The notes under the pieces are model-generated. The model saw only the letters and a list, made by a program, of their open reading frames with translations, had not been told where the DNA came from and ran no database searches. Source: an uncultured Candidatus Saccharibacteria bacterium (GTDB lineage Bacteria; Patescibacteriota; Saccharimonadia; Saccharimonadales; JACDBH01). From it: DNA of 24,000 nt. Positions 1,166-21,616 of this stretch are shown here, piece after piece. The position numbers were made by a program, and so were the translations under genes. The stretch's first letter is position 1, and every line of letters starts with the position of its first letter. The DNA lies in assembly GCA_964458165.1 (NCBI GenBank), contig CAYWFI010000004.1:1-24000 (forward strand). Direction: 5' to 3'.

Positions 1166-3097
1166 CTAAAGATTCGTTAAATCAAGCGCCGTATTGATGT
1201 ATTCGGCGTGACTCCAGACCAGCGGCGAGACTCCAACCTGGGCAGCGTTCTCTGGATCTACCTGCTCGCTTAATATACCGCTATGCAGCGTCTTATGAGC
1301 GGCCCAAGCCATAATATCGTTGGTTTTATCGGTCATATTGTGATCGTTATAATACTGAGCCAGCCAGAATGAACAGATAAACCAAGGATTACCAAGATAC
1401 TGTGATTTGGTGCGCATATACGAATCGCTCTCGTACCGCGGCGCACCGCCCGAAGGCGACTGGTCTAGCAGCACCTGTTCGATCAAACTAACGGTATCCC
1501 CTATTTGTCCTTTGACAGACTCGGGGCCGAACATCATCATGCCGTATAGGCTCGATACGTCCAGCGTGTTATCGTTTTGTATCGTGCCGTCAGGGTGCAG
1601 TAATATGCCCTTACGGAAGGCCTTTCGCTCCGGGTCGAACAGCTGCGGCATACCCGATTCGATACGCGCGGCAGCTTCGTTCCAGGCAACAGCATCATCA
1701 GGATAGTTAAACAGTTCGGCCAGGCCAGCAGCCACTTTCAGTGACGCATAGGTCACGGCCACGGTATACGTACTGGTCAAGAATTTTTCTTCCCATAGAT
1801 CGTAACTGGCGTGTGGCAGGTTGGTCGCGTCGTCTATGAATGACTTCATAAAATGAGCCGACGGTCGCACCAGCGTGCCGTACAGCAATTCTACAAATTG
1901 CTTATCACCGCTTATCTTGAGATATTCGCCCAGCATGATCAGCACGATGGCTGTTTCGTCCTCCTGGATGGCCAGCTCCTGCCTCTGGCCATGCACCAAT
2001 GGATGCCAGGTGCTGCCGATGGCCCGGTCTGGCTGGTATTTGTGCATCATATAGCCATCTTCGTGAATAATATCGCGGCAGAACTCAAAAAAATTGCGAG
2101 CTTCTTCGGTGTGGCCAAGCCTGATTAACGGCCAAATGGCATAGGCGCCGTCACGCGGCCAGCAATAACAGTAGTAATCCCGGCCGTAATTGAAAATACT
2201 TGAATCCCCCGAAGCCAAAATACCGCCACGCTTATCGGTGTGGGCTTTGATAATCAGCATCGATTTTTTTACCAACGCCTGGTAACGCTCGTCGATCTGC
2301 TTGACTTTGGAATCGGAAATCGCCATCCACTCGCTCCACCAGCGGCGAGCGTCACGCAATCTGGCTACCAAGCCATGCTGCTTGAGCTGCTCGTGCAGTG
2401 CTTCGGCATCCTGCTGCGAGCTGGCGCCTACCACCCAATAATCCACCACCCGGGCTTGTGACGCGCCAAGGGCGATTTTGACCCTCAGCACCGAATCAAC
2501 GCCGCCGTGCTCGACCGCGTTACCTGACAGCTCACCGTCTTCGGCATCCTTGAAAGTACCTTCTTTGCCTTCGATGCCGTAATTACCCACGGCGTACTGG
2601 TCAAATGGCGTACCGTCGCTGTTCTCGGCGTAAATCAGCAAGCTGCAGCGGCCTTTATAGTCCAGCAGATAGTTGCCGTCGGGCACAAACAGGGCAGTGT
2701 CAGCCCGACCCGCCCGGGAAATCTGGAACACCTGGTGCATAAACAACCTTACGTCACGCTTCTGCTCAAACCGATTAATAACCTTGATATGCCTGCAAAA
2801 AGCGTTAATTGTCGGATCGACGAAATCCTGGAACTGCAAATCCAGTCCTAGCTCTCTGTTCTTCATCGTTATGGTGCTGATCAGAGCCTCTGGCTCAAAA
2901 TCTACATTCAGTTCCCAGTTGCCGTCATTGGTCCAGCTGAATTTACCATCTACCCAGACACCAATCTTGTGCCGTTCGCTGCGAGTGGTAGTCAGATTTT
3001 CCAGTCCCACGTACGGATAGTAAAAGTCATGTACCAGACCGTCTTTGTTCAGGCCGACGAACATTGACCCATTACTAAGTACGACTGGCCGTCCCAT
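1166..3097 (-). CDS. Glycoside hydrolase family 15 (glucoamylase/glucodextranase-like)
   Basis: 643 aa with GH15 hallmarks: NYGRDYYCYCWPRDGAYAIWPL, DLWEE, and LSEQVDPENAAQVGVSPLVWSHAEYI near the C-terminus. The start lies 1 nt after the GH57 stop. Confidence 0.9.
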   Translation of the reverse strand: MGRPVVLSNGSMFVGLNKDGLVHDFYYPYVGLENLTTTRSERHKIGVWVDGKFSWTNDGNWELNVDFEPEALISTITMKNRELGLDLQFQDFVDPTINAFCRHIKVINRFEQKRDVRLFMHQVFQISRAGRADTALFVPDGNYLLDYKGRCSLLIYAENSDGTPFDQYAVGNYGIEGKEGTFKDAEDGELSGNAVEHGGVDSVLRVKIALGASQARVVDYWVVGASSQQDAEALHEQLKQHGLVARLRDARRWWSEWMAISDSKVKQIDERYQALVKKSMLIIKAHTDKRGGILASGDSSIFNYGRDYYCYCWPRDGAYAIWPLIRLGHTEEARNFFEFCRDIIHEDGYMMHKYQPDRAIGSTWHPLVHGQRQELAIQEDETAIVLIMLGEYLKISGDKQFVELLYGTLVRPSAHFMKSFIDDATNLPHASYDLWEEKFLTSTYTVAVTYASLKVAAGLAELFNYPDDAVAWNEAAARIESGMPQLFDPERKAFRKGILLHPDGTIQNDNTLDVSSLYGMMMFGPESVKGQIGDTVSLIEQVLLDQSPSGGAPRYESDSYMRTKSQYLGNPWFICSFWLAQYYNDHNMTDKTNDIMAWAAHKTLHSGILSEQVDPENAAQVGVSPLVWSHAEYINTALDLTNL

Positions 3098-3098
3098 A

Positions 3099-4307
3099 TT
3101 AGACTTCTACGCCCTTCTCGATGAGACGATAGCGAACATCATGCCAAGCATTTATAAAGTTAATAAACGCTTCGTACGGTGATTCGTACGGGCTGAAATA
3201 GGCGTGCACGTCCCCGTCAGAGAACCACTTGGTGCACATATAATAAAAATGGTCCGATGTGGTCAAGCGGCGCCAATCGGCAATCAAGCCATCATCGCCG
3301 CTGTCCAGCACGGCTTTTTCAAGCCCATACAGAGCCTGAATAGCTTGCTGCTGCATCTTATTGCCTAACCACGCCGTGAGATCGCGTTCCGTGTCAGCCC
3401 AGGTGACTGTATGCGGCATATCGACCCGGTCAACCGGCTCAAACGCGTCTATGGCGCCGCTGACCGTCATAAAGGTGTGGCCCTCCGTCTTAAGCCACTC
3501 CTCTGGTAGATGGCGTAAAAACTCAAAAATACCCGTGTCTTCCCATTGGTGCTCGCCAAAAGTTTCATAATCCATGAACAGATTAAAATTGGTCGCGTCG
3601 CCGGACTCGCTCAGCCAATGCGAGAAAGTGCTGGCAGTCAGCGGCGTGTCAGAACGAGCCGTTTCGCTGAAACGGAAGGCAATGTCGTCGCTCAGACGAT
3701 AATTCTTTAGTAGCAGTCTAATGTTGTTGGTATAAGTAGGCTGGTATACAAAATTAGGACTGCGCCAGCCTAAAATCGGATCCCAACCTTCAGCCAAGAT
3801 GCCTTTGTAGCCGGCCTCATCAGCCCAATAGGCCAGATCATTGTTGTAAGCCAGCTCGGTGTTACGAAACACCTGCGGTGTCTGGCCGAACAGTTCCTGG
3901 ATTTTCCGCCGGTGCAAGTCAACCTGGTGTTCAAATTCGCTGCGCGAATAGAAAAACGCCAGGCTGTGATGATACGTCTCGGCTACGATTTCTACCCGGC
4001 CGGTTGCCGTTAGCGCCTTAAAGCTATCCAGCACCTCTGGCGCCCACATCTCGAGTTGCTCAATAACCGTCCCGGTAATCGACAGGCTGAGTTTGAAGTC
4101 AGGATGACGCTCCAGCAGCTCCAGCAGCAGCCGATTGGTAGGCAGGTACGACTTATCCGCCACTTTGCGGATAACACGTTCGTTCGATTCGCGCGCGTCG
4201 TACGCGGCGTCAAAGTAATTATGCTGATTCCCGGCATCAAAAATCGTGTAGTGCCGGATACGATACGGCTGGTGTACATGCAAATATAAGACGATTGCCT
4301 TACTCAT
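3099..4307 (-). CDS. Glycoside hydrolase family 57 protein (alpha-glucan-active)
   Basis: 402 aa with the conserved GH57 regions: LHVHQPYR, GTVIEQLE, FRNTELAYN (candidate nucleophile Glu) and FMDYETFGEHQW (candidate acid/base Asp). Its ATG overlaps the GT4 stop (ATGA). Confidence 0.85.
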   Translation of the reverse strand: MSKAIVLYLHVHQPYRIRHYTIFDAGNQHNYFDAAYDARESNERVIRKVADKSYLPTNRLLLELLERHPDFKLSLSITGTVIEQLEMWAPEVLDSFKALTATGRVEIVAETYHHSLAFFYSRSEFEHQVDLHRRKIQELFGQTPQVFRNTELAYNNDLAYWADEAGYKGILAEGWDPILGWRSPNFVYQPTYTNNIRLLLKNYRLSDDIAFRFSETARSDTPLTASTFSHWLSESGDATNFNLFMDYETFGEHQWEDTGIFEFLRHLPEEWLKTEGHTFMTVSGAIDAFEPVDRVDMPHTVTWADTERDLTAWLGNKMQQQAIQALYGLEKAVLDSGDDGLIADWRRLTTSDHFYYMCTKWFSDGDVHAYFSPYESPYEAFINFINAWHDVRYRLIEKGVEV

Positions 4308-5524
4308 GCCGCCGTCCCCGCCAACTCCCTGGCATGATGATCATACCAATTGATAAGCCGTTCGGCCGCCGGGTGCCAAGACAGCCGTTGGTACTCATGA
4401 TAGGCATTGGCGTGAAGTTCATCACGCAGACCGTCGTTCTGGACCACCGCGGTAATTTGATTGGCCATTTCATCAATATCCCAAAAATCGACCTTCAAGC
4501 AGTTATTAAACACTTCCGCCACACCCGACTGCCTGGATATGAGCGACGGCGTACCGTAGCCGGCTGCCTCGAGCGGCGTCAGGCCGAACGGTTCGGATAC
4601 GGAGGGCATTACAAACAAATCGCCGACGGCAAAGCTGTCACGCCAGTTTTTACCGCGCTGAAAACCGGTAAACACCACGTTTCTGCTGATGCCCAGCTCT
4701 GCGGCCAGCTCGATCAGCTCAAAATACTGCTCGCCCGATCCGACAATCAAAAATATTGTTTTTGGCGCTCTATCAATCACCGCCTTAGCGGCATAAAGCA
4801 GGTTGGGCAAACCCTTTTGTATGGTAATACGGCCGATATTAACCACCACCCGGTAACCTTGAGCTTTCATGGCCGCCAGATAATGATGGGCGCTGTGTTC
4901 GTCCAAAGGCTCTACCATATCGAGGTCCAGACTATTGTAAACAACATCTACCTTGTCCGCCGGTATGCCGTATTCGCGCACGATGGCATCCTTGGTGAAC
5001 TGACTAACGGCAATAACTCTGTCGGCCATCAATAAACCCGTTTCTTCGATTTCGCGCACCAGCGGATTGCCGCCGCCCTCAAACCCGGCCCGATCGGCCT
5101 CTATAGAGTGGACGTGGGCGATCAGCGGCTTGCCCGACAGTTGCTTGGCTTTCATTGCCGCCCGGAACGTCAGCCAATCATGAGCATGAATAACATCGTA
5201 ATCAAGCAGTAAGGCCAGCCGTCCGACAGTCGTCTCGTACAGAGACTGCTGGCCATGCATATCCAGCCAGTGTTCGCTGCCATCGGTGGCAATAAACTTG
5301 AAACTGTCGTACGCTATGCCGCTCTTAAAAAGCACTTTGGCGTCTTGCGGATGAGCGGCAATCACATTCATAAAATCAATATCAGGGTGATCGGCGGTAT
5401 AGGGAACTAGAAAATCAATATCCACGCCTTTTTCAGAGAGGGCTTTACAGAGCTGGTAGCAAGCCACACCAAGACCACCACTGTTGTGGGGCGGGAGTTC
5501 CCACCCTAACATCAATACTTTCAT
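4304..5524 (-). CDS. GT4-family glycosyltransferase, glycogen-synthase-like
   Basis: 406 aa. N-terminus MKVLMLGWELPPHNSGGLGVACYQL. EX7E motif SEPFGLTPLEAAGYG. It is the first gene of the GT4-GH57-GH15 string. Confidence 0.8.
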   Translation of the reverse strand: MKVLMLGWELPPHNSGGLGVACYQLCKALSEKGVDIDFLVPYTADHPDIDFMNVIAAHPQDAKVLFKSGIAYDSFKFIATDGSEHWLDMHGQQSLYETTVGRLALLLDYDVIHAHDWLTFRAAMKAKQLSGKPLIAHVHSIEADRAGFEGGGNPLVREIEETGLLMADRVIAVSQFTKDAIVREYGIPADKVDVVYNSLDLDMVEPLDEHSAHHYLAAMKAQGYRVVVNIGRITIQKGLPNLLYAAKAVIDRAPKTIFLIVGSGEQYFELIELAAELGISRNVVFTGFQRGKNWRDSFAVGDLFVMPSVSEPFGLTPLEAAGYGTPSLISRQSGVAEVFNNCLKVDFWDIDEMANQITAVVQNDGLRDELHANAYHEYQRLSWHPAAERLINWYDHHARELAGTAA

Positions 5525-5712: not shown

Positions 5713-7029
5713 CTAAACATCGCGCACGCTGCCAAAAGCCACGCGGTCCAGAATTTCACCGCGCATGTCCATCATGGCGGCCGGGACTATAACGAACTCG
5801 CCGTAGCGGTTATTTATCTCGTCAACCGCATCCGACACGTGCCGTTCGGCGCCGAAGTTACGCTCATCACTCAGTAAACTCAACTGTTCCGGGTCAGCCG
5901 GGGCAAGGCCAAAGGTCGTGATGCTCATACCGCGTACTTTGTCGTAGATTTCGGCCCTTTGCAGCAGTGATTTGGCGGCGCGGTAAATGCTTTCGGTGCT
6001 ATAGAGGCGAAAGCCGACCTTTTCGCCGTGGTGCCAGGCGTTACGGCTATCCAGCCTCTCGCCGCCTATAAAACCGTTATCTCTCTTGGGCGCATCCTGA
6101 TAATTGACAAAGCTCAGGTACAGGTGGATACCGCCGGCGGTCAGACCAACCTTGCGCAGTCTACGGCCTACTTTTTCGCACAATTTCATCAGCAACCGCG
6201 CCAGTTCTTGTTTATCGGTGGTTTTGTGGGGCAGGGCGTACTGGTGGCCAATTTGGGTCCGTTTGGACTCGTATTTGTCAGTTTCGTAACCGCGCAGGCG
6301 CAAATACCAGTAGTAGCCGGTAATACCCCTGAAGACGACTTTTTCTAGCAGGCGTCGATCGGCGCGCAAAAAATCCAGCGGAGTCATGATGCCATATTGT
6401 CGCAGCCGCGCCTGGTAACGGATGTTGATACCGGGCAGATCAACCAGACTCATTCCGTCGTACGTTGCCTCCAGATTGGTATGGTCGATCCGCCGCATGC
6501 CGTCGGGCTTGTCAAACCCAGCCGCGAACTTGGCTAAGAACCTGTTGGGCGCGATGCCGATATTGACGGTTACGGCCTCGCCAATGTGCTCCCGTATCCG
6601 TTGTTTGATGTCCAGAGCGATAGCTTCTATTGCTATCCCAGCTCGAACTTTGGGCGACCCTTCCAGATGCAGCACGAACTCGTCGATACTTTTGGGCGAA
6701 ACATCATCGGTATATTCCAGCATCAGGTTCTTGAACCTGCGATGTGCCTCACGGTATTTGGCCGGGTCGGGTGTCATGATGATAATATCCGGACAGAGCT
6801 GACGGGCTTGGGCCACATTGACGCCCAAGCGGATCCCCTTGCGCTTGGCCTGGTAGCTGGCCGCCAGCACAAAGCCCCGCGGCGTGTCATAAGCCGCCAC
6901 GGCCACCGGCCGGTCGCGCAGCAATCGGTTAGCCTGCTGCTCGATAATGGCAAAGCAAGAGTTCAGGTCTATATGCATAACCCGCGGCTGCGAATGGCTA
7001 ATTGGTAAATTATTATCTTTCATGGTCAT
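5713..7029 (-). CDS. Y-family (translesion) DNA polymerase, DinB/UmuC type
   Basis: 438 aa. N-terminal MHIDLNSCFAIIEQ motif, RPVAVAA...GFVLAASYQAKRKGI, and the catalytic SIDEF (Asp-Glu) motif, which suggests an active enzyme. Confidence 0.9.
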   Translation of the reverse strand: MTMKDNNLPISHSQPRVMHIDLNSCFAIIEQQANRLLRDRPVAVAAYDTPRGFVLAASYQAKRKGIRLGVNVAQARQLCPDIIIMTPDPAKYREAHRRFKNLMLEYTDDVSPKSIDEFVLHLEGSPKVRAGIAIEAIALDIKQRIREHIGEAVTVNIGIAPNRFLAKFAAGFDKPDGMRRIDHTNLEATYDGMSLVDLPGINIRYQARLRQYGIMTPLDFLRADRRLLEKVVFRGITGYYWYLRLRGYETDKYESKRTQIGHQYALPHKTTDKQELARLLMKLCEKVGRRLRKVGLTAGGIHLYLSFVNYQDAPKRDNGFIGGERLDSRNAWHHGEKVGFRLYSTESIYRAAKSLLQRAEIYDKVRGMSITTFGLAPADPEQLSLLSDERNFGAERHVSDAVDEINNRYGEFVIVPAAMMDMRGEILDRVAFGSVRDV

Positions 7030-7763: not shown

Positions 7764-8057
7764 TCATGCTTCGCTCCTTCCGTAAGTAGGTGCCATTTCG
7801 TCAGCTGTCATATATTCCTCTAGCGTCCACTGGAGACTGTCGGTGTGTAGGGCTAACTTAAAATAAACTCGCTCCTGTTTGTCGGCGATAGAGAAATGAT
7901 GAACCTGATGCTTCCCGGCCCAAGTCTTGTGCCAGAAGTCTATTTTGCCAAGGTAATATTCTTGATTATTCCAGGTCAGCATGTAGGGTTGCATGTGTTT
8001 GGTTCGGGCATTGTAGTACCACACGACGCTAACAGGTTCGTCTAATGATTCACGCAT
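7764..8057 (-). CDS. Hypothetical protein, paralog A of a tandem pair (97 aa)
   Basis: GGGGGG Shine-Dalgarno 5 nt upstream of the ATG. It shares an ungapped motif block with ORF 8194..8517: LTWN..(E/D)Y.LG...FW........VHH...D......F.L.L.T..L.W.L. Confidence 0.7.
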   Translation of the reverse strand: MRESLDEPVSVVWYYNARTKHMQPYMLTWNNQEYYLGKIDFWHKTWAGKHQVHHFSIADKQERVYFKLALHTDSLQWTLEEYMTADEMAPTYGRSEA

Positions 8058-8193: not shown

Positions 8194-8517
8194 TCATACC
8201 GTTACCCCCGCGAAATTCCGGCCCGCAAATGAGCCTATCGAAGCCGCCTTAGTAGCCTTATCCAGACTCCAGGTCAGATTCTCGGTTTCTAGAGACAGCT
8301 CAAAAGTATACTCGCCGTATTCATCGCTAACACGGTAGTGATGCACCAGTACATTGGCACGATGTTCGGCGTACCAAAACTGTACCCCGCCAAGGAAATA
8401 ATCCTCGCCGTTCCAGGTCAGACGCACAGGCCGGGCGTACTGGTCGCGTCCATTAAAGCTAAACAACACATCCACCACGTTTTTATTTTTATTAGAAGAG
8501 AAGAGGCTGTTACGCAT
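8194..8517 (-). CDS. Hypothetical protein, paralog B of a tandem pair (107 aa)
   Basis: GGAG lies 9 nt upstream of the ATG. It is paralogous to ORF 7764..8057, with about 20 identical positions in an ungapped stretch of ~56 residues by hand count. Confidence 0.7.
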   Translation of the reverse strand: MRNSLFSSNKNKNVVDVLFSFNGRDQYARPVRLTWNGEDYFLGGVQFWYAEHRANVLVHHYRVSDEYGEYTFELSLETENLTWSLDKATKAASIGSFAGRNFAGVTV

Positions 8518-12327: not shown

Positions 12328-14541
12328 TTAGTTCTCGTTGTCCTCTGTTTCATTACCGCCATAAATTTTAAGCTCAACCTTTATGCTGTCATGGGACAAA
12401 TTGAGCGCGTTAGCCAGGTTAAGAACAAGCTGTCGCTTGGCGTTTGTATTCGTACCTGTGTTTACAAAATAGCCGGTGGTGTTTATCTCTCTGCTGGAAC
12501 TGAAGGCCGTTGCGTCTGTCTGTATATACTTAGACAACCACTCATCGGCATTCACAGTTTTTAGGAAATGGTCGGGGTTATTGTCATATATAGCTTCAAT
12601 TATGGCGTCTACGGCGTCCGCCCAGGTAGAGATAGAATCCTTTTTACCGAATACCTCAACAGACTTAATGCCTTTACCCTTTAGATCAATATCGTCTAGT
12701 AAGAATACGGACGTATCTTCTTCGACAGGATGGAATGATGTAACAGGCAGAGGCCATACGCTATTAAGCTTCTCAAGCCACCAGTCCTGACGTTCCTTAA
12801 GAGTATCTTCGTTCCAAGTATCGTGAGATGCTATCCATTTATTGATTTGCAGGGGACTATACTGAAGACCGACTTTCTTAACTTCGCCTGTCTTCTTGTC
12901 CTTAGTTTCCAGCGTCATCTTATCGCGGTACGGCCTGTTGGAGTAATCCGAGTTGTAGCCAGTGAGCGTAAGGTTGGCGAGAGTATGCAGATATTCACCG
13001 TGAATACGCTCGTAGTCTTCGCCTAGCATTTCTTTCCACTCCGGGCTTGTGAGAGTCTGCGGCATTACATGCTCTATTGTAAGCTGAAGACCGTCTTCAA
13101 CGATAGAGTGCAAGGTCTGCTTAGATTCTTTTGTGCCGTTATCGGTTGCCGACAATACGTAGCACAGAACGGAATTGCCGTGCTGTTCGTAGAATGGATA
13201 GGTTCGTACGGCATTTTCAAAGTCATCGCTGTTCGGCATTTGCGTCTGACCTGTCTGGCTCAGAATGACGTACTTAAGAACGTCTACATAGCTTGCCTCT
13301 CTGTCGCGCCGTAGATAGTCAAGAACTTGTTTGTGTAGAGAGGCCATGAACCTGTCCACACTGGTTACATAGAAATTGACTACGACACGGCGAGAAAAGT
13401 ACGACTCTATGAGATTAAATACTTCTAAAAGTTCTTCGTCTGTTATTTGCTCGTCAGCATGATATCCAAGTACCGACATAGCGTATGGGATATACAGATC
13501 GACCCGAAGATAGCGCATGCGAAAAACGGTTTCTGCGATACTGTCGTATTTTAAGAACTCTGGGTTATCTTTAATAGCGCTAGTATCGGTTAGTTTCAGA
13601 AGCTCATAAAACTTGAGTGATCTTTTAATATTGCCGTAAAACCTGTCAATTAGCTCAAGTTCTTGGTCTTCTCCTACATGTCGTTCAAATTGTTTCTTAA
13701 ACTCCGAATAGACTTCCGGTAGCTTAATATTGGATTGTTTTTTAGAAATCAGATAATACCTAAAAAAGTCGGTGATATAATCCTGGTTTACATCAGTTAA
13801 GGTGCGTTCTATCACACGCCAGTATTCGTCATAGACATGGTTTCTTAGGTTCTTGTTGTTCAGCATGAGTGCAAAGTTGCGGATCTTGTCACCGTCAGAC
13901 AAAGGTTTACCGGTGGAGTTGATACTCTCAAATACTCGCTGCGGGTTGTCGTCACCAGCAACCAGCGTCAGAACTGCTATCTCAAAGTGCGAAAGGCCCT
14001 CTATGTATTTATCCAGACCGCCCTGTTTCCTGCTGAAGTAATCCCGGAACTTAGAGTAGACTTTATAAACATTACTCTGGCGGTCTTTTAAATCCAGTTC
14101 TGATTCTTCGCCGCGAGCATTAAAAATTCGCTGAAGAATCTCGTTGTCTGTGGTTACGGTGCGGAGTTTTACGCGGTTGTTGTCCAGGTCTTTGTTTATA
14201 AGGAATTGATACTCAAGTTTATCGGCTGTTGTTTCTGGGTTTTCCAGTAATGCCGGGTTCTTTTTCGCCATGTGATAAATAGCGGCAATCATGAGAAGTG
14301 AAGTAGTGACGCGCTGTTGTCCGTCAATGATAGCTTTAGAATAAACACTCTGCGTGTCTTCAACTTCAACTACCGTACCGAAGTAGTGATTCTTACCCTT
14401 AGCGATACATTCTTCCAAATCGTTCAGGAACTCATCAACGTTAGTAGTCTGCCAAGAATACGGCCGCTGGAACTCGGGTATCTCAAAGAAAGTGCCGGGC
14501 GTGTACAGAAACTTCTTCATATTACTCTGGGCAAAAATCAT
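12328..14541 (-). CDS. GmrSD-family protein (N-terminal DUF262, DUF1524 His-Me/HNH-type nuclease, extra ~150-aa C-terminal region); putative type IV restriction/defence enzyme
   Basis: DUF262 motifs FEIPEFQRPYSW and IIDGQQRVTT. DUF1524 motifs TIEHVMPQT and LHTLANLTLTGYNSDYSN. AGGAG Shine-Dalgarno. The gene is visibly more AT-rich than its flanks. Confidence 0.85.
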   Translation of the reverse strand: MIFAQSNMKKFLYTPGTFFEIPEFQRPYSWQTTNVDEFLNDLEECIAKGKNHYFGTVVEVEDTQSVYSKAIIDGQQRVTTSLLMIAAIYHMAKKNPALLENPETTADKLEYQFLINKDLDNNRVKLRTVTTDNEILQRIFNARGEESELDLKDRQSNVYKVYSKFRDYFSRKQGGLDKYIEGLSHFEIAVLTLVAGDDNPQRVFESINSTGKPLSDGDKIRNFALMLNNKNLRNHVYDEYWRVIERTLTDVNQDYITDFFRYYLISKKQSNIKLPEVYSEFKKQFERHVGEDQELELIDRFYGNIKRSLKFYELLKLTDTSAIKDNPEFLKYDSIAETVFRMRYLRVDLYIPYAMSVLGYHADEQITDEELLEVFNLIESYFSRRVVVNFYVTSVDRFMASLHKQVLDYLRRDREASYVDVLKYVILSQTGQTQMPNSDDFENAVRTYPFYEQHGNSVLCYVLSATDNGTKESKQTLHSIVEDGLQLTIEHVMPQTLTSPEWKEMLGEDYERIHGEYLHTLANLTLTGYNSDYSNRPYRDKMTLETKDKKTGEVKKVGLQYSPLQINKWIASHDTWNEDTLKERQDWWLEKLNSVWPLPVTSFHPVEEDTSVFLLDDIDLKGKGIKSVEVFGKKDSISTWADAVDAIIEAIYDNNPDHFLKTVNADEWLSKYIQTDATAFSSSREINTTGYFVNTGTNTNAKRQLVLNLANALNLSHDSIKVELKIYGGNETEDNEN

Positions 14542-14740: not shown

Positions 14741-15874
14741 ATGAAAAACCCAAAAAAGAAGACTGAGAAGAAACGGCGCAAGATATCTATAAAGCGCCTG
14801 TTTCTTAAGGGAATTTGGTTTAGTTCTGCAGCGTTCCTTGTGTTCATAGCCGGTATTATGATTGGCGGGTCGCTGATAGGACTAAGTCTGGACGACGAAG
14901 GCGTACTAACGCTAAATGATTTTGTCATGGCAACCTGGCTGGATGCCTTTGTATTGGCTGGCCTATTATTGCTATTTGTCTTCTTGCTCAGGAAAAAGAA
15001 GCACACGCTTATCAGATGGACAAGGCGTACGTTTACGGTGCTATCCATACTTATATTCATTGCCGCGATAGGTACGACTATTTTCTTACTCGCCAGCTAC
15101 GAAGATGAGAATTTCCTTAGAGTTGAGAACCAAATTCAGGCAACCCCTGAGTCTAATGCTGTAGCCGGCAATGCCGATTATTCTGAGGGGTTGGCTTTTG
15201 ACAACGCGAAACTGCTTGAAGCCACCAACAGAGAGCGTGGCGGAGCTGGGGTCAATCCTTTGACTCTGAGTGACAAATTAAGCGCTGGCGCGCAGAAAAA
15301 ATGTGAAGATATGGTAGCAAAAGACTACTGGTCGCATAAAGACCCGGCAGGCAATGAGCCCTGGCGTTTCATAACGGACACCGGGTACGCATACGAAACA
15401 GCCGGCGAAAACCTGGCTTATGGGTTTATCAAGGAGACGGATGTTATTACGGGCTGGATGAATAGCCCAGGCCACAAGGAAAACCTACTTGCCACGAAGT
15501 TCACGGAGGTAGGTTTCGGTGTCTGTCAAAGTGATAACTATGTAAATACAGGGAAGCAACTAGTGGTTGTCCAGCACCTTACGCGTCCCGGAACAACAAA
15601 TACTACATCGAGGAGCGGTAACTCAGCACCTAAACAAAAGCCGTACGTAGCCTCTGTATGCACAAAGACACCGATCCCTTATAACACGACCTATGAGGAG
15701 CGGAGTTATCTGTACGTGGGCGAAACAAGCTCTATTGGTGGTTATGAGGGTTATACGTACACCTGTACGACAGATTCCGAAGGCTATACACCGCCCAGCT
15801 ACACGGTAGACCCGATGGATAAAACTATACTTGTAGGCACTAAACCAAAACCCGAGGCAGGACCAACGCCATAA
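14741..15874 (+). CDS. Membrane protein with an extracellular CAP/SCP (YkwD-like) domain and a C-terminal G5-like domain
   Basis: Lys-rich N-terminus, then 3 hydrophobic helices. CAP core NRERGGAGVNPLTLSDKL...YWSHKDP...ENLAYGF...GWMNSPGHKENLL. The C-terminus TPIPYNTTYEERSYLYVGETSSIGGYEGYTYTCTTDSEGY...DKTILVGTKP resembles a G5 domain. Confidence 0.75.
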   Translation: MKNPKKKTEKKRRKISIKRLFLKGIWFSSAAFLVFIAGIMIGGSLIGLSLDDEGVLTLNDFVMATWLDAFVLAGLLLLFVFLLRKKKHTLIRWTRRTFTVLSILIFIAAIGTTIFLLASYEDENFLRVENQIQATPESNAVAGNADYSEGLAFDNAKLLEATNRERGGAGVNPLTLSDKLSAGAQKKCEDMVAKDYWSHKDPAGNEPWRFITDTGYAYETAGENLAYGFIKETDVITGWMNSPGHKENLLATKFTEVGFGVCQSDNYVNTGKQLVVVQHLTRPGTTNTTSRSGNSAPKQKPYVASVCTKTPIPYNTTYEERSYLYVGETSSIGGYEGYTYTCTTDSEGYTPPSYTVDPMDKTILVGTKPKPEAGPTP

Positions 15875-15900: not shown

Positions 15901-17481
15901 CTATTGCTTCTCGGCTACAAGAACCGCGTCCTGAAAGCCTGCTGGATACGACACCGATCTTGTGCCGCTAGCCGGGAAAGTACCGGCATCAGTCGTGGAC
16001 CCATTTGCCGGGTTAAACCACGATAATTTAATATTTCCTCCTCCAAGCGCCGTCATATTAACGACTATACCGCTCCTGTTGTTAGGAAAATAAGCTAGGC
16101 CTACTGAATTGTTTTTGGCTATTGCAGAGGTTGAGTAGTTTGTTGTATTAACCGTGCCGTAACCGCCAGTTAGCAATTTAACTGTATTATTCGCCCTATG
16201 GTCAGGTACTAGTTCCGTCCGATATTTATCAAAAAACGTCGCCAGTCTCTTGATGTCATTCGAAGAATTCGCGTTAAGGGCGTTTTTCCAAACTGAATTC
16301 ACATCCCATACCTGTTCGTGTCCGTAGGCAAATCCGACGCCTCCGCTCAGGAAAGTCCAATATGCCTGCGCTCTTAGCCCTCGATCATCAAGCAGGGTAT
16401 TGGCAGGTACGGTTCTGTCCAATGTCTCTCTTGCGTCATAGAATGCTTCGGGATTAATTATTGGCTTTGGATTAGCGCGGTTATAGGTAGGCTGTACGAT
16501 TTTGTATGGCAATTCGTCCGAGTAGGCAAAAGATACTGTATGCCAGGAGTCGTTATGGAAAAAATCACTGCTTGAGAAGGTTCTATCAGTATGATAGCTC
16601 ATCAGGTGTCTTATTGACTCGTTATTACGGATTGCTTGCCCCATATTACGCGTAGCCTGCGTTTTATCTGAAGTATCTTTTCCTGCCGGGACATTAGAAA
16701 CTCCAGAACCTGATAGGTCAGGGTTATTATCGCCACCCAGTGTCCACATAATATTTGGTTTATCGCCGAATCTTTTTCCTAGAAATGTCCCGTATGCTGT
16801 CGCGTTAGAGTTACTAACATACCCCCGCCAGTCCCAACCCGCCCAACCATACCAGGATGGGATTAAGTTTATCTGCATATCTCTGTTTGCCGCTTGATCA
16901 ATTATATAATCTATGTGATCCCAATAGTCATAATCAGAACTATTGGCGTTTGAGGTCCTGGCACCGACCTCTCTTGGTTGACTTATGTCTAGATTGTTAA
17001 TAAACGGACTGGCACCATATACGTTCGGAAGCGTGCCTAAGTTAGGAAACATCAAAACCGATACTTGAATAGTGTTAAAACCTTTACTCTTCCTGTCATT
17101 CAGATAGGTAACAATATCAGCCTGATTCATGCGTGCCGGAGCGAACCACCCCGCATCAGCGATATAGTAATAAAATTTATTATCCGCAGTTAGTAAATAT
17201 CTTCCGTTATCGCTAGCCTTTAGTGGATATGTACCGTTCGACGAAGGAGGCGGGGCGGGATTAAATATTATTGCTTGACCATCTGATGCTTGTTGATCGC
17301 TAATTTTTTGCGCACTCCCAGACAGAGTACCGGATTCTGCCTCAAAGGATCTTGATGGACCCGCCGCGAATATCACGGCAATCATTGAGACGCCAAGAAT
17401 TGCTAAGGCTACAACAAACAACACTTTAGTGTACGGCGTATTGTATCTATCTAATGTTACTCTCAAGTTACTCACAAGCAC
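15901..17481 (-). CDS. Secreted glycoside hydrolase, DUF4038/GH140-like, with a C-terminal collagenase-type binding-like domain
   Basis: N-terminal TM anchor. FEAESGTL...ASDGQAI motif. NGRYLLTADNKFYYYIADAGWFAPARMNQADIVTYLNDRKSKGFNTIQ matches the DUF4038 N-terminal pattern as I remember it. The C-terminal LSWFNPANGSTTDAG...DAVLV resembles PF12904-type tails. Confidence 0.65.
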   Translation of the reverse strand: MLVSNLRVTLDRYNTPYTKVLFVVALAILGVSMIAVIFAAGPSRSFEAESGTLSGSAQKISDQQASDGQAIIFNPAPPPSSNGTYPLKASDNGRYLLTADNKFYYYIADAGWFAPARMNQADIVTYLNDRKSKGFNTIQVSVLMFPNLGTLPNVYGASPFINNLDISQPREVGARTSNANSSDYDYWDHIDYIIDQAANRDMQINLIPSWYGWAGWDWRGYVSNSNATAYGTFLGKRFGDKPNIMWTLGGDNNPDLSGSGVSNVPAGKDTSDKTQATRNMGQAIRNNESIRHLMSYHTDRTFSSSDFFHNDSWHTVSFAYSDELPYKIVQPTYNRANPKPIINPEAFYDARETLDRTVPANTLLDDRGLRAQAYWTFLSGGVGFAYGHEQVWDVNSVWKNALNANSSNDIKRLATFFDKYRTELVPDHRANNTVKLLTGGYGTVNTTNYSTSAIAKNNSVGLAYFPNNRSGIVVNMTALGGGNIKLSWFNPANGSTTDAGTFPASGTRSVSYPAGFQDAVLVAEKQ

Positions 17482-17779
17482 CCTTTTAGAGTTTATGGTT
17501 GCATAGATAAAGATTACTAAACTTTCTGTTTAAAGCATAATTATTTTCATCCCGTGTCCCTTATCCGACTGAACACCATGCGGTCTACAGGGCTTTACTA
17601 TTGCCCGCAGACGCATTTCAGGAAACTAACGTACTTGTTGCAGGCGTTTCAAATTATGTCTTTGCAGCCATAATAAGCTTATGATAATATTATGGTAATA
17701 CGTAACGAAAGGCACCGACTCTCGCATATATATTAAGAAGTAGATGATACTTATCCACAAGCATATGCATGTTTTGGTA

Positions 17780-17808
17780 TTGACATGTATGAGTTGTAAG
17801 TAGATTAT
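17780..17808 (+). promoter_or_regulatory. Candidate promoter of the 17868-21410 cluster
   Basis: TTGACA (17780-17785), 17-nt spacer, GATTAT (17803-17808), in an AT-rich intergenic region of about 385 bp. Confidence 0.35.
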
Positions 17809-17867
17809 TAAATAGTAGGGTTTAGTTCCTACGACATTGTTCTACAACTTATTAGTGGGGGTTCGTT

Positions 17868-18449
17868 ATGAAGCACGTATTAATACGTCACGATAACAAA
17901 AGGAACCAAAAACCACACACAAACACTCTGAACACGAACATAACTCGGTTCCAGAGCTGGCGAAACTTTCTTGAATTGTCCAAAACACCGGCTGCTATTG
18001 CTATAGCTGCCGGTTTTTTTATAGCTCTAGCACCTGTGAGTGTCGCTACTTTTTATGCAAATCAAAGTGACACGGATGTAAATTTTGCGGATATGTTGCC
18101 CAACGAACATGAAACCGTACCAGTTACAACTGCCGGCACTCCCGCCGTAAATGAAGAGACCGCTCCCAATATAACACCGGTAGACAAACAGACAACAGCA
18201 AATGTGGCCCACGACCGGACAATTTCCATTAGTATTGAATCACGTCAGACTACAGAAACACCCAAACAGGATCCGTCGCAGACTCCATCGGTCACCGTAA
18301 ACGGACAGGCGGTCACCCTGCCCAAGAACGGGACTTACCGCGAGACATACCAGGACAAAGACACTAAAACCAACATACGTATACGCGGCACAAGCGATGC
18401 ATCCTCCATATCCATACATACGAAAACCGATGTAAAGGAGGGTGATTAA
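17868..18449 (+). CDS. Hypothetical single-pass (type II) membrane protein with a Thr/Pro-rich ectodomain
   Basis: 193 aa. GGGGG Shine-Dalgarno. Basic cytoplasmic N-terminus, TM helix AAIAIAAGFFIALAPVSVATFYA, low-complexity T/P/Q-rich region. I recognise no family. Confidence 0.55.
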   Translation: MKHVLIRHDNKRNQKPHTNTLNTNITRFQSWRNFLELSKTPAAIAIAAGFFIALAPVSVATFYANQSDTDVNFADMLPNEHETVPVTTAGTPAVNEETAPNITPVDKQTTANVAHDRTISISIESRQTTETPKQDPSQTPSVTVNGQAVTLPKNGTYRETYQDKDTKTNIRIRGTSDASSISIHTKTDVKEGD

Positions 18450-18572
18450 TTATGCGGTGAAACAACACACGTCATTCGACCTTGGCGAGTTTTGCAAAAA
18501 AACTAAAAATCGCGCGTGGGTCGGACGAGGTGTCCGAGGTAACTAATTTAATAACAACAAGGAGGGTAGCTT

Positions 18573-19163
18573 ATGAAAAAGTTACTTGGTTTATTTGTTG
18601 CGGTATTGGTGAGCGTGGGGCTTACTGGCGGTATCGTAGCAGCCAACTCGGGTGCAATTGACGGAACCGGACCTGGTTCGCGCAATGAAATCAGCGACAA
18701 AGACAACTCTAGGGTTAATCTAAACAACAGGACTGATGTCGACGCGAGGATTGACACTGACCAATACGCCAGCAGCGGTGATGCTTGGGTCAAATTCAAC
18801 ACCACCGGTGGTAGCGCGAGTAGCGGTGACGCTAGCAACGAGAACAGCGTAGAAGCAGATCTTTCCATCGACAACAGCGGTTCGTCTAGTGCCGCCCTGG
18901 CTTGCGCCTGCAATGGTGGAGGTGGCGGGAACAGCAGCAGTATAGACAATACTGGCCCGCTGTCGAAAAACGAGATTAAGCACGAGAATAATTCTCGTGT
19001 TGAGGTCAACAATAAAACCGATGTTAACTTCAATAACAACGTCAAACAGGTAGCAAAGACCGGAAACACAGCTGTTTTCCTAAACACTACGGGCGGCGAT
19101 GCAACCAGTGGCGATGCGTCCAACTCCAGTAGCACAGTCTTCAGTCTTTCTGTTACCAATTAG
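18573..19163 (+). CDS. Secreted repeat protein with two ~75-aa units carrying TGP-S-NEI and NTTGG-A-SGDASN motifs
   Basis: Strong AAGGAGGG Shine-Dalgarno. Signal peptide MKKLLGLFVAVLVSVGLTGGIVAANS. Internal duplication IDGTGPGSRNEISDKDNSRVNLNNRTDV...FNTTGGSASSGDASN versus IDNTGPLSKNEIKHENNSRVEVNNKTDV...LNTTGGDATSGDASN, joined by a Gly/Ser linker containing CAC. Confidence 0.8.
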   Translation: MKKLLGLFVAVLVSVGLTGGIVAANSGAIDGTGPGSRNEISDKDNSRVNLNNRTDVDARIDTDQYASSGDAWVKFNTTGGSASSGDASNENSVEADLSIDNSGSSSAALACACNGGGGGNSSSIDNTGPLSKNEIKHENNSRVEVNNKTDVNFNNNVKQVAKTGNTAVFLNTTGGDATSGDASNSSSTVFSLSVTN

Positions 19164-19290
19164 GCGATTTAGCGGTTCTAGTTAAGTTAAGCAACAACTC
19201 AAACAGATGGCGGCCATCATAGACCTTAAACCCCACGCTTTTAGAGTCGAATGGCACCCCGCGCGCCCAGGAAAAATCCAAAGGGAGACA

Positions 19291-19326
19291 CGGCAAGAGC
19301 GAGCCTCGACAAGCTCACTCTTGCCG
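19291..19326 (+). promoter_or_regulatory. Intercistronic GC-rich hairpin between the 196-aa and 673-aa genes (no U-tract)
   Basis: cggcaagagcgagc (19291-19304) pairs with gctcactcttgccg (19313-19326) at 13 of 14 positions, with an 8-nt loop. It is followed by ggtgtgtg rather than a T-run. Confidence 0.5.
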
Positions 19327-19388
19327 GGTGTGTGAGTCAAGACATTGTTACGAATTGTATTTTAGTGTGAGGTAGGAGGCACCATTGC

Positions 19389-21410
19389 ATGAGAGATTTC
19401 ACGAACCGGCTAAGACGCTTATTAATTTATGCTGTCGTTAGTGTTTACTTTATAACTCTAGGCAACGTTTCGTTGTCCGCGAAAATATTCGCCGAAGAAG
19501 CAGATGTAACCAACCCTCCGGCAGAAGCCTCCACTCCAGAGGAACCGGTGGCACAAAGTACTGAACAGCCGCCCAAACCAAAAGAACCTAGTTTTATCTA
19601 TAATCCTGAGACAGGTCTGTGGGAAAGCAAATATTACACTTGGGATCCTGTTACTAGGCAGACTACCATAAAGCATCCTACAAAAACCCCCGTTAACCCG
19701 ACTCCAGAAAGCCCAGAGCACGCACCACAGGCACAATCATCTAATGCGGCGGATACTGAAACACCGACAGTTAGTCCGCAGACCCTGGCAGGACCCAGCA
19801 GCAACCAGCAAGCAACTAGTCACAACCCGGTCCATCAGGCAGCTCTACCGCTGAGCGCAGCTACGTTGCCTGGACCAGGCCAAGAGATAAGCGTATCGCC
19901 AAATAATAACAATTACACGCATGCTGATCTGCTTAGCAATGCGGCAATAAACAACCAGATTGATTCCAGTGCCATAACCGGCAATGCGTCAGTCCTCCAA
20001 AACACGACAGCCGGCAGCGCTACTAGTGGTGATGCCGTAGCTATGGCAAATGTATTGAACATGCTCCAGTCGACCTGGAGTGCCGATGGGCTGTTGCCGC
20101 AAATATATGTTGCTGATATCCAAGGCGAATATGTTGGCGATATTATAATTGACCCATCGCTTTTTTCGGGCATCCAGGCAGGCAACTGCTCGCTTTGCGG
20201 CGAGACTATAGTCAATTCCACTACCAATAACACCATTAATAACGATATAAATCTATCCGCGTCTACTGGCAATGCTACCGTGTCTAGCAACACAACAGCC
20301 GGTAACGCGACTACTGGAGACGCCGCGGCACTGGCCAACGTTATTAATATGATCAGCAGCTCAATCACCTCTGGTCAATCATTCCTTGGCGTGATTAATG
20401 TCCACGGAAATCTAGAGGGCGATATTATAGTTGCCAGCGACGTAATTAACGAACTGATTGCAGCCAACGTGCCAACAACAGAGATCAGTCTATGCCCCAC
20501 CTGCGGCAACATATTAGCAGAACTAAACAGCAGTCAATCGGTTACTAATAATGTAAGTATGAATGCCGCCAGCGGATCAGCCAACATAAGCATGAACACT
20601 AACGCCGGCAACGCTACCAGTGGCAATGCTGCTACCAATTTGACAGTATTCAACCTAACTGGGCATACGGTTGTCGGCCGTGACGCGTTGTTGGTATTTG
20701 TTAATGTCCAGGGCGAGTGGGTAGGATTTATAACCAACGCGCCGGAGGGCAGCACAGCGGCAGCCTTTGGCGGCGGTTTAACAGAAAACAGCTACCTAAC
20801 ACCCGGCGGTGAATACAACATAGAAAATAACATGATGATTAACAACAATATAGATGTTAGCGCTATCAGTGGAGACGCTGAGGTTAGCTACAATACTAGT
20901 GCCGGTAACGCCACCAGCGGTAACGCCACGGCATCTGTCAACCTGGCAAACGTAATGGACAGCTCGTTCAGTCTGACTGGCTGGTTTGGCATACTATTCA
21001 TAAATGTCCTGGGCGATTGGTTCGGTAGCTTTGGTATTAATACCGCTTACGGCAACGGGCCGATAATCGAGAGTTATAGCCAAACACCAGCTACTGGTAT
21101 TCATAATGTATCGGCAACCAGCCAGATTAATCAACCGTCACCGACCAATAACCCGCACAATCGGTTTATGGTATTTAGTGTCAGCTTCGAGGATGACGAC
21201 AACGATGGCGGCATGATACTAGCCAGCGTCAGCCAGATAGATCCGCCCAGCTCGACCGCTACCACGAGCTCGGTACCGGCAACAATATTAAGCCAAAGCA
21301 ATAATGTCTTCACAACGCTCGCATTGGTACTGGCAATTGCGGCAGCCTTTGGTCTGATTATGCACGGCGACAACCTCAAGATGCTAATCTTCAAAAACCG
21401 CCAGTTATAG
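19389..21410 (+). CDS. Large surface protein: signal peptide, Pro-rich spacer, four ~100-aa repeats with an SG-A-V--NT-AGNATSG-A core, Ser/Thr stalk and C-terminal TM anchor
   Basis: AGGAGG Shine-Dalgarno. Repeat cores are ITGNASVLQNTTAGSATSGDAVAMANVLNM, STGNATVSSNTTAGNATTGDAAALANVINM, ASGSANISMNTNAGNATSGNAATNLTVFNL and ISGDAEVSYNTSAGNATSGNATASVNLANV. Each is followed by a (F/Y)(I/V)NV-G-(W/L)-G segment. CSLCG and CPTCG motifs precede repeats 2 and 3. C-terminal helix TTLALVLAIAAAFGLIM. Confidence 0.8.
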   Translation: MRDFTNRLRRLLIYAVVSVYFITLGNVSLSAKIFAEEADVTNPPAEASTPEEPVAQSTEQPPKPKEPSFIYNPETGLWESKYYTWDPVTRQTTIKHPTKTPVNPTPESPEHAPQAQSSNAADTETPTVSPQTLAGPSSNQQATSHNPVHQAALPLSAATLPGPGQEISVSPNNNNYTHADLLSNAAINNQIDSSAITGNASVLQNTTAGSATSGDAVAMANVLNMLQSTWSADGLLPQIYVADIQGEYVGDIIIDPSLFSGIQAGNCSLCGETIVNSTTNNTINNDINLSASTGNATVSSNTTAGNATTGDAAALANVINMISSSITSGQSFLGVINVHGNLEGDIIVASDVINELIAANVPTTEISLCPTCGNILAELNSSQSVTNNVSMNAASGSANISMNTNAGNATSGNAATNLTVFNLTGHTVVGRDALLVFVNVQGEWVGFITNAPEGSTAAAFGGGLTENSYLTPGGEYNIENNMMINNNIDVSAISGDAEVSYNTSAGNATSGNATASVNLANVMDSSFSLTGWFGILFINVLGDWFGSFGINTAYGNGPIIESYSQTPATGIHNVSATSQINQPSPTNNPHNRFMVFSVSFEDDDNDGGMILASVSQIDPPSSTATTSSVPATILSQSNNVFTTLALVLAIAAAFGLIMHGDNLKMLIFKNRQL

Positions 21411-21506
21411 TGGCAGCCGCCTGCAAGAACTGCTCAAGGTATGTAAGGTATTAACCTGAGTATAAAAGCTCATCTTAAGCAGTGTTAGACCAAGCCCTGA
21501 AAGATG

Positions 21507-21527
21507 AAAAAAGCCTCCGAAGAGGCT
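21507..21527 (-). terminator. Rho-independent terminator downstream of tRNA-Trp
   Basis: On the minus strand: agcctc-ttcg-gaggct followed by TTTTT(T). Plus-strand coordinates are stem 21512-21517 / 21522-21527 and A-run 21507-21511. Confidence 0.8.
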
Positions 21528-21539
21528 ATTCATCTTGTT

Positions 21540-21616
21540 TGGCAGGGGCGGGGGGATTCGAACCCACGGCCTTTGGTTTTGGAGACCAACGCTCTAACCA
21601 GCTGAGCTACGCCCCT
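21540..21616 (-). tRNA. tRNA-Trp (anticodon CCA)
   Basis: Reverse complement reads AGGGGCG-TA-GCTC-AGCTGGTTA-GAGC-G-TTGGT-CTCCAAA-ACCAA-AGGCC-GTGGG-TTCGAAT-CCCCC-CGCCCCT-G-CCA. The cloverleaf folds with one U:C mismatch in the T stem. CCA is encoded. Confidence 0.85.

Follow-up and report, generated by a model that had tools for sequence, protein, structure and literature searches.

A Patescibacteria-wide cell-surface protein module encoded by a conserved gene cassette in Saccharibacteria

We analysed a 24,000-nucleotide stretch of DNA from an uncultured Candidatus Saccharibacteria bacterium (contig CAYWFI010000004.1, positions 1 to 24,000; hereafter the window), in which three co-oriented genes, here called g1, g2 and g3, encode a membrane protein, a small secreted protein and a large anchored protein. 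We find that g2 and g3 are built from a common repeat module that belongs to a Patescibacteria-wide family of cell-surface proteins, and that the three genes stay together as a cassette in related genomes. Surface-protein clusters made of paralogs with different anchors are a known kind of system; what is undescribed is the module itself, its predicted fold and its occurrence in a cassette throughout the candidate phyla radiation (CPR). A preliminary description of this DNA, made from the sequence alone, had wondered whether the organism was of the CPR type, and its Saccharibacteria source answers that question.

A large share of bacterial diversity belongs to Patescibacteria (the CPR), whose members cultivated to date live attached to other cells. 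Type IV pili aside, we know of almost no Patescibacteria surface proteins with an assigned function. Periodic surface layers or S-layers have been seen on CPR cells by cryogenic transmission electron microscopy (cryo-TEM) (10.1101/2020.05.14.094862; reviewed in PMC13293708). Most protein families enriched in CPR are membrane or extracellular proteins with no annotation. Sortase, itself CPR-enriched, is encoded by over half of the CPR genomes (PMC6744442). Within the literature on Saccharibacteria and CPR S-layers, sortase substrates, surface proteins and metaproteomics, we found no description of the module family reported here.

Results

A repeat module shared by g2 and g3

Open reading frames (ORFs) of 193, 196 and 673 amino acids (aa) define g1 (17868-18449), g2 (18573-19163) and g3 (19389-21410), all on the + strand and in exact agreement with the gene positions first proposed. 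The shared repeat core that had been noticed in g2 and g3 reflects true homology. A blastp alignment of g2 with g3 gave E = 1.4e-6, and a hidden Markov model (HMM) of the g2 family matched four separate units of g3, with i-E values from 1e-8 to 4e-6. Comparison of the two families with hhalign returned a probability of 99.1%, with g2 units 1-2 collinear with g3 units 1-2. The four matched units are also the four cores of the AlphaFold model of g3.

The module is ~75 aa long. It comprises the motif (S/N)xTGPxSxN, a strand pair (VxVxNxND...), the segment QxAxSGDAxVxxNTTGGDATSGDAxN and a last strand that ends in an invariant Asn, a pattern followed by both g2 units and all four g3 units. Outward-facing positions are highly variable, and one face, with alternating V and N, is conserved. 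Among proteins that match the g2 profile, the number of units ranges from 1 to ~10. The preliminary description had assigned the TGP-S-N motif to g2 exclusively, which does not hold: the motif aligns with g3 unit 1 (PGPGQEISV...), GPxSxN is retained in the consensus of the g3 family, and CPR homologs show NTGxxSxN before every unit. The converse claim, of a hydrophobic insert peculiar to g3, proved correct, as FVNVxGxWxG is specific to g3-type units and nearly invariant among them.

We note that the best-conserved motif, the core NTT(G/A)G(N/D)ATSG, gives each unit a pair of N-x-S/T sequons, N-T-T and N-A-T; these could be either glycosylation sites or purely structural Asn and Thr residues. 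The segment GGDATSGDA was also considered as an RTX-like Ca-binding nonapeptide, a reading that we rejected given the lack of any HemolysinCabind match and a consensus that does not fit.

Searches of Pfam, NCBIfam, PHROGs and the PDB gave no explanation of the core, which was rightly left outside the characterised families at the outset. Scans of g1-g3 against the first three databases returned sub-threshold or borderline matches only (FecR, Glucodextran_B and S27e), which we judged spurious or partial, and g3 had no Pfam match. Nothing significant was found when single proteins and family profiles were searched against PDB sequences; the best match, 4r03_A at E = 0.066, is a weak and non-significant alignment of an aromatic hairpin region of g3 (see below) with a YD-like repeat protein. 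Foldseek comparison of the g3 model with the PDB gave E values of 5.9-6.5 at best, with TM scores of 0.03-0.06, and the BFVD search yielded nothing useful.

The cassette is conserved in Saccharibacteria

A scan of species-representative genomes located relatives in 146 stretches, from which we kept 79 loci, all from Saccharibacteria-type metagenome-assembled genomes (MAGs). ORFs were called in these loci and then searched with the family HMMs. A g3 homolog lies directly 3' of g2 in every locus with enough downstream DNA (73/73; median gap, 114 bp). Directly 5' of g2, a weak HMM built from four sequences detected a g1 homolog in 52 of 74 loci, and inspection of the 22 apparent misses added a g1-like gene, with one transmembrane (TM) segment and the motif VNGQxVxVPxNG, in ~13 of them. 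The three genes thus behave as one conserved unit in relatives. The genes that flank them differ between genomes; the conserved entity is the cassette, not its neighbourhood.

The cluster is near-universal among the Saccharibacteria genomes that we retrieved. The g2 family numbers 184 matches, and 2376 representative clusters match the g2 profile. All named homologs from the g2 and g3 searches belong to Candidatus Saccharibacteria or Saccharimonadales, except for one 6.7-kb contig labelled Rhodoglobus.

Paralogs with different anchors in Saccharibacteria and other CPR phyla

Within a few kilobases of the cassette, related genomes encode 29 single-unit paralogs that carry an LPxTG-like sortase signal. 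In each, a signal peptide precedes the single unit and a low-complexity linker; then come the LPxTG-like motif (LPETG, LPNTG, LPVTS and other variants), a hydrophobic segment and a basic tail. One of them adjoins a sortase gene. Single-unit or 2-unit LPxTG paralogs were recorded at loci L003 (10518-11057, - strand), L010 (9612-10121, - strand), L020, L081, L084 and ~25 others, and a further LPxTG paralog at L087 (7266-8084); several of these have a sortase gene beside them. Neither g2 nor g3 of the window has an LPXTG signal, and the window contains no LPxTG paralog. Other variants of the module are held by an N-terminal TM anchor.

A search started from one multi-unit member reached Woykebacteria, Gottesmanbacteria, Roizmanbacteria and Staskawiczbacteria. 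The Woykebacteria protein P0436 (752 aa) aligns to the g3 profile with an hhalign probability of 99.6%, spans all four insert-bearing units and ends in a TM helix and basic tail. Its gene is the third in a series that encodes a bitopic protein, a secreted 4-unit protein, the g3 homolog and a 2-unit LPVTG protein. The Gottesmanbacteria locus starts with a 2-unit and a bitopic protein; a 4-unit protein and the g3 homolog come next, and then a small protein and a sortase. In both clusters, a secreted multi-unit protein stands immediately ahead of the g3 homolog. The bitopic proteins that stand in for g1 in these other phyla are unrelated to it (weak DUF4352 match). In a g3-type protein of Staskawiczbacteria (P0489, 980 aa), two C-terminal dockerin repeats (PF00404) replace the TM helix, which implies a cohesin-dockerin type of surface attachment in some CPR.

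The module therefore occurs in free secreted (g2), C-terminal TM (g3), LPxTG, N-terminal TM and dockerin forms. These five anchoring solutions for one module are strong evidence that it lies outside the cytoplasmic membrane, and they suggest a scaffold-like role. The export and surface location first assumed for the window proteins are thus supported twice, by the signal peptide and the C-terminal TM helix with its basic tail in the window and by the LPxTG, dockerin and N-terminal TM anchors of relatives. We conclude that the module family is Patescibacteria-wide and belongs to the cell surface.

Architecture of the three proteins

The large protein g3 has the architecture originally described, namely an N-terminal hydrophobic signal, four ~100-aa units, a Ser/Thr stalk and a C-terminal TM helix, as judged by hydropathy and AlphaFold. 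The signal or anchor helix spans aa 2-28 in the model (hydrophobic core, aa ~11-30). It is followed by an aromatic beta-hairpin module (aa 66-95; nt 19584-19673) and a linker rich in Pro, Thr, Ser and Gln (aa 96-168). The repeat units occupy aa 169-262 (unit 1; nt 19893-20174), 263-362 (unit 2; nt 20175-20474), 363-462 (unit 3; nt 20475-20774) and 463-556 (unit 4; nt 20775-21056). A small beta-hairpin (aa 594-617) precedes the Ser/Thr stalk, which leads to the TM helix (aa 639-659; nt 21303-21365) and a basic tail. The C-terminal TM helix, basic tail and Ser/Thr stalk are likewise present in the g3 family. The repeat region is acidic, with 1 Lys or Arg residue against 28 Asp and Glu.

AlphaFold2 modelling of g3 with 120 homologs predicted the four unit cores with high confidence (predicted local distance difference test [pLDDT], 90-98), together with disordered linkers and both terminal helices. 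By DSSP the units are all-beta, with strands of 10-20 residues instead of the short polar rungs that the preliminary description had envisaged. The aromatic hairpin module, likewise predicted with confidence, shows the conserved pattern N72/W78/E79/Y83/W85. Two aromatic hairpin repeats in tandem (YTYNxxTGLWENxYYTWDP and YSYNPxTGxWDTTxWxY) are present in the consensus of the g3 family; the window g3 retains the first only, and the second is degenerate and disordered. The two CxxCG motifs that had been pointed out do exist in the window g3, but they are not a feature of the family: they occur in close relatives only, and most members have no Cys. The Cys pairs sit in inter-unit linkers, and a role as a metal or redox motif was rejected, since the pairs are lineage-specific.

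The small secreted protein g2 likewise matches its first description, with a classical signal peptide by hydropathy (aa 1-25; nt 18573-18647) and two ~75-aa units. Unit 1 (aa 27-102; nt 18651-18878) is separated by a Gly/Ser linker, which holds a Cys pair of its own (C111/C113, CxC), from unit 2 (aa 122-196; nt 18936-19160), which closes on the invariant C-terminal Asn. Mature g2 contains 16% Ser, 15% Asn and 11% Gly, with 19% hydrophobic residues. It carries no anchor, and the hydrophobic insert of the g3 units is missing from it. Modelled alone from a 42-sequence alignment, g2 was predicted with low confidence (pLDDT 52), too poorly for a fold search.

Hydropathy supports the assignment of g1 as a membrane protein, with a single TM segment (aa ~41-62; nt 17988-18053) after a basic N-terminus. 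The protein is bitopic, with a basic N-terminal cytoplasmic part, the TM helix and a Thr/Ser/Pro-rich ectodomain that contains a small conserved motif, VTVNGQxVxLPxNGT (aa 141-165; nt 18288-18362). Pfam and NCBIfam scans of g1 gave no match.

Expression signals and genomic surroundings

The expression signals noticed at the outset are present. Shine-Dalgarno-like sequences precede the starts of g1 (GGGGG), g2 (AAGGAGG) and g3 (AGGAGG). The 386-bp intergenic region 5' of g1 (17482-17867, + strand) is AT-rich, with 36.5% GC compared with 48.5% for the window, and contains a sigma-70-like site, TTGACA-17-GATTAT, at 17780-17808, identified as a consensus match only.

The g2-g3 spacer holds a stem-loop, GGCAAGAG...CTCTTGCC (19292-19325, + strand), which may be an mRNA-stabilising or attenuating hairpin. 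In relatives (L006-L084), both the g1-g2 and the g2-g3 spacers are structured, with a median z of about -3 against dinucleotide-type shuffles, so the hairpin is not peculiar to the g2-g3 spacer. Long GC-rich hairpins, often perfect and without U-tracts, lie 3' of g1 and g2 in most species, and a U-tract terminator was found in only 2 spacers. They could be a typical element of these genomes, acting as terminators that lack a U-tract or as stabilisers of mRNA. We considered whether a hairpin or attenuator placed specifically after g2 sets a high g2:g3 ratio, and rejected it as specific evidence on two grounds: equal structure in the g1-g2 spacers and the scarcity of U-tract terminators. Downstream of g3, a GC-rich hairpin (AGCCTC-CGAA-GAGGCT, 21512-21527, no strand assigned; z = -3.7 for 21405-21545) lies in the interval before a convergent tRNA-Trp gene (21540-21616, - strand) and is likely a bidirectional terminator.

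The cassette's neighbours in the window encode an apiosidase-like hydrolase, a CAP-domain protein, GmrSD, the tRNA-Trp and a kinase-like ATPase, none of them functionally linked to it. The apiosidase-like glycoside hydrolase, which has a collagen-binding-like C-terminal domain (15901-17481, - strand), and the CAP (cysteine-rich secretory protein) domain protein (14741-15874, + strand) lie just 5' of the cassette. The Gottesmanbacteria cassette, too, has a CAP-domain gene close by, just beyond its 3' end (L088:8816-9589); the presence of such a gene near the cassette in two genomes could be coincidence or a loose association.

Farther away, a GmrSD-type restriction endonuclease (GmrSD_N + GmrSD_C; 12328-14541, - strand) provides this CPR genome with a defence gene that targets modified phage DNA. 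Two adjacent small ORFs of 97 and 107 aa (7764-8057 and 8194-8517, both - strand) are paralogs with the common pattern LTWNxxEYxLG...FW...HH, in a region with no other long ORF. A run of glycan-metabolism genes (1166-5524, - strand) encodes a glycoside hydrolase family 15 (GH15) glucoamylase-like protein, a GH57 protein and a family 4 glycosyltransferase (GT4), and is followed by a Y-family DNA polymerase gene (5713-7029).

Discussion

The interpretation that we favour, and regard as somewhat probable, is that the cluster is the Saccharibacteria version of a Patescibacteria-wide surface cluster in which g2 docks on anchored homologs and so contributes to a coat or adhesive layer. Under this interpretation, g3 would be a type I protein with its C-terminal helix in the cytoplasmic membrane and its basic tail inside. 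Its Ser/Thr stalk would cross the wall and display four acidic modules, each presumably stabilised by its own hydrophobic insert, FVNVxGxWxG, with the aromatic beta-hairpin at the distal tip, where it may bind a glycan or the host. Anchorless g2 would stay at the surface because its modules associate with those of g3 and of wall-anchored paralogs, and together these proteins would build the envelope coat or adhesive layer. The bitopic g1 may serve as an accessory protein that aids assembly or anchoring. The contrast between the confident prediction of the g3 units and the poor prediction of g2 alone fits a g2 that needs a partner.

Several points weigh against this interpretation. The poor g2 model may reflect the shallow 42-sequence alignment alone, and tandem duplication can cluster paralogs that never assemble together. 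The role proposed for g1 is a guess, because the protein is weakly conserved and is swapped for unrelated bitopic proteins in other CPR phyla.

We consider it possible, if rather unlikely, that g2, g3 and the LPxTG paralogs are independent surface adhesins or host-recognition proteins, each with host or environmental ligands of its own, that became neighbours by tandem duplication and do not co-assemble. Saccharibacteria live as epibionts of host cells (PMC10633639, PMC13293708), and a set of adhesins would agree with units whose outward positions vary greatly around one conserved face, with a unit number of 1 to ~10 across homologs and with an aromatic N-terminal hairpin module in g3 that resembles a ligand-binding tip. 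However, the strict order of g2 then g3, kept in 73 of 73 genomes and across CPR phyla, exceeds what would be expected as a residue of duplication. Moreover, g2 lacks both an anchor and the completing hydrophobic insert of the g3 units.

It is improbable, in our view, that the cluster encodes a functional-amyloid or fibre system, as the preliminary description had suggested, in which g2 polymerises as the major subunit while g3 or an LPxTG paralog acts as the cell-bound nucleator or anchor. The arrangement of a small anchorless homolog beside large anchored ones would suit such a system, as would the Asn/Ser/Gly-rich composition of g2, its alternating conserved V/N face and the poor prediction of its monomer. 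Against this, the Pfam scan of g1-g3 at E<=1 gave no match to the curlin (Curlin_rpt, PF07012), chaplin (PF03777) or TasA-camelysin families, nor did NCBIfam. The g3 units are also predicted as self-contained folded domains, and Foldseek detected no beta-solenoid or beta-helix similarity in the g3 model, its best match having E = 5.9 and a TM score of 0.04.

FecR-like transmembrane signalling, with g1 as a bitopic anti-sigma-like protein and g2 as a FecR-domain sensor, is very improbable: although g2 has a borderline Pfam match to the likewise all-beta FecR domain (PF04773; 24.2 bits against a gathering threshold of 24), shared by 6 of 42 family members, and one homolog was named 'FerR' by the Joint Genome Institute (JGI), the match is limited to profile positions 5-44 (40 of 97) over a low-complexity Asn/Asp-rich strand, the PDB profile search found no FecR or PupR chain, no adjacent extracytoplasmic function (ECF) sigma factor or TonB-dependent transducer that would give a signalling context is annotated in the window or in 5 annotated loci, and g2 is secreted in free form rather than being part of a bitopic protein as its ectodomain.

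The proposed docking of secreted g2 on anchored homologs has counterparts in known systems. Streptomyces chaplins likewise use one small domain in both anchorless secreted and anchored multi-domain paralogs (short secreted ChpD-H; long sortase-anchored ChpA-C), a layout that by analogy would imply a secreted form assembling on an anchored form. Unlike chaplins, which the Pfam scan did not match here, the module is ~75 aa long and polar and acidic rather than hydrophobic, and it is by a C-terminal TM helix that the main partner is anchored. Curli (CsgA/CsgB) and Bacillus TasA/TapA also encode a small secreted subunit beside a homologous or partner cell-bound protein, and they share Asn/Ser/Gly-rich repeats with g2. 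The present cluster differs from both in having no Curlin_rpt or TasA match and no dedicated secretion or assembly machinery, and in g3 units that are predicted to be folded domains with their own hydrophobic core.

The Csc clusters of Lactobacillales comprise CscA (DUF916, TM anchor), CscB/C (WxL proteins) and CscD (a small LPXTG protein), and thus follow the same logic in a monoderm: genes for a TM-anchored protein sit together with those for secreted partners that lack an anchor and for a small LPXTG protein. Their domains are unrelated to those described here, however, and the Pfam scan of g1-g3 contained no WxL, DUF916 or DUF3324. Haloarchaeal-type S-layer glycoproteins are, like g3, acidic exported proteins held by a C-terminal TM anchor, next to which lies a Ser/Thr-rich stalk, but there is no sequence or fold relation between them and no SLH domain was matched by Pfam in g1-g3.

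For domain databases, the module is a new family: Pfam has no model of it, and no solved structure could be recognised as its relative. The cluster is a concrete candidate for the envelope layer seen by cryo-electron microscopy (cryo-EM), for host adhesion and for phage receptors, and it is a defined target to which the genetic tools that now exist for Saccharibacteria could be applied. We also entertain, as a doubtful proposal, that it is the core of the CPR surface layer, with g3 as a pedestal, g2 and the sortase- or dockerin-anchored paralogs as a lattice or coat, and the aromatic tip in contact with the host. If this is true, one phylum-wide gene cluster would define the cell surface of these epibionts and their interface with the host.

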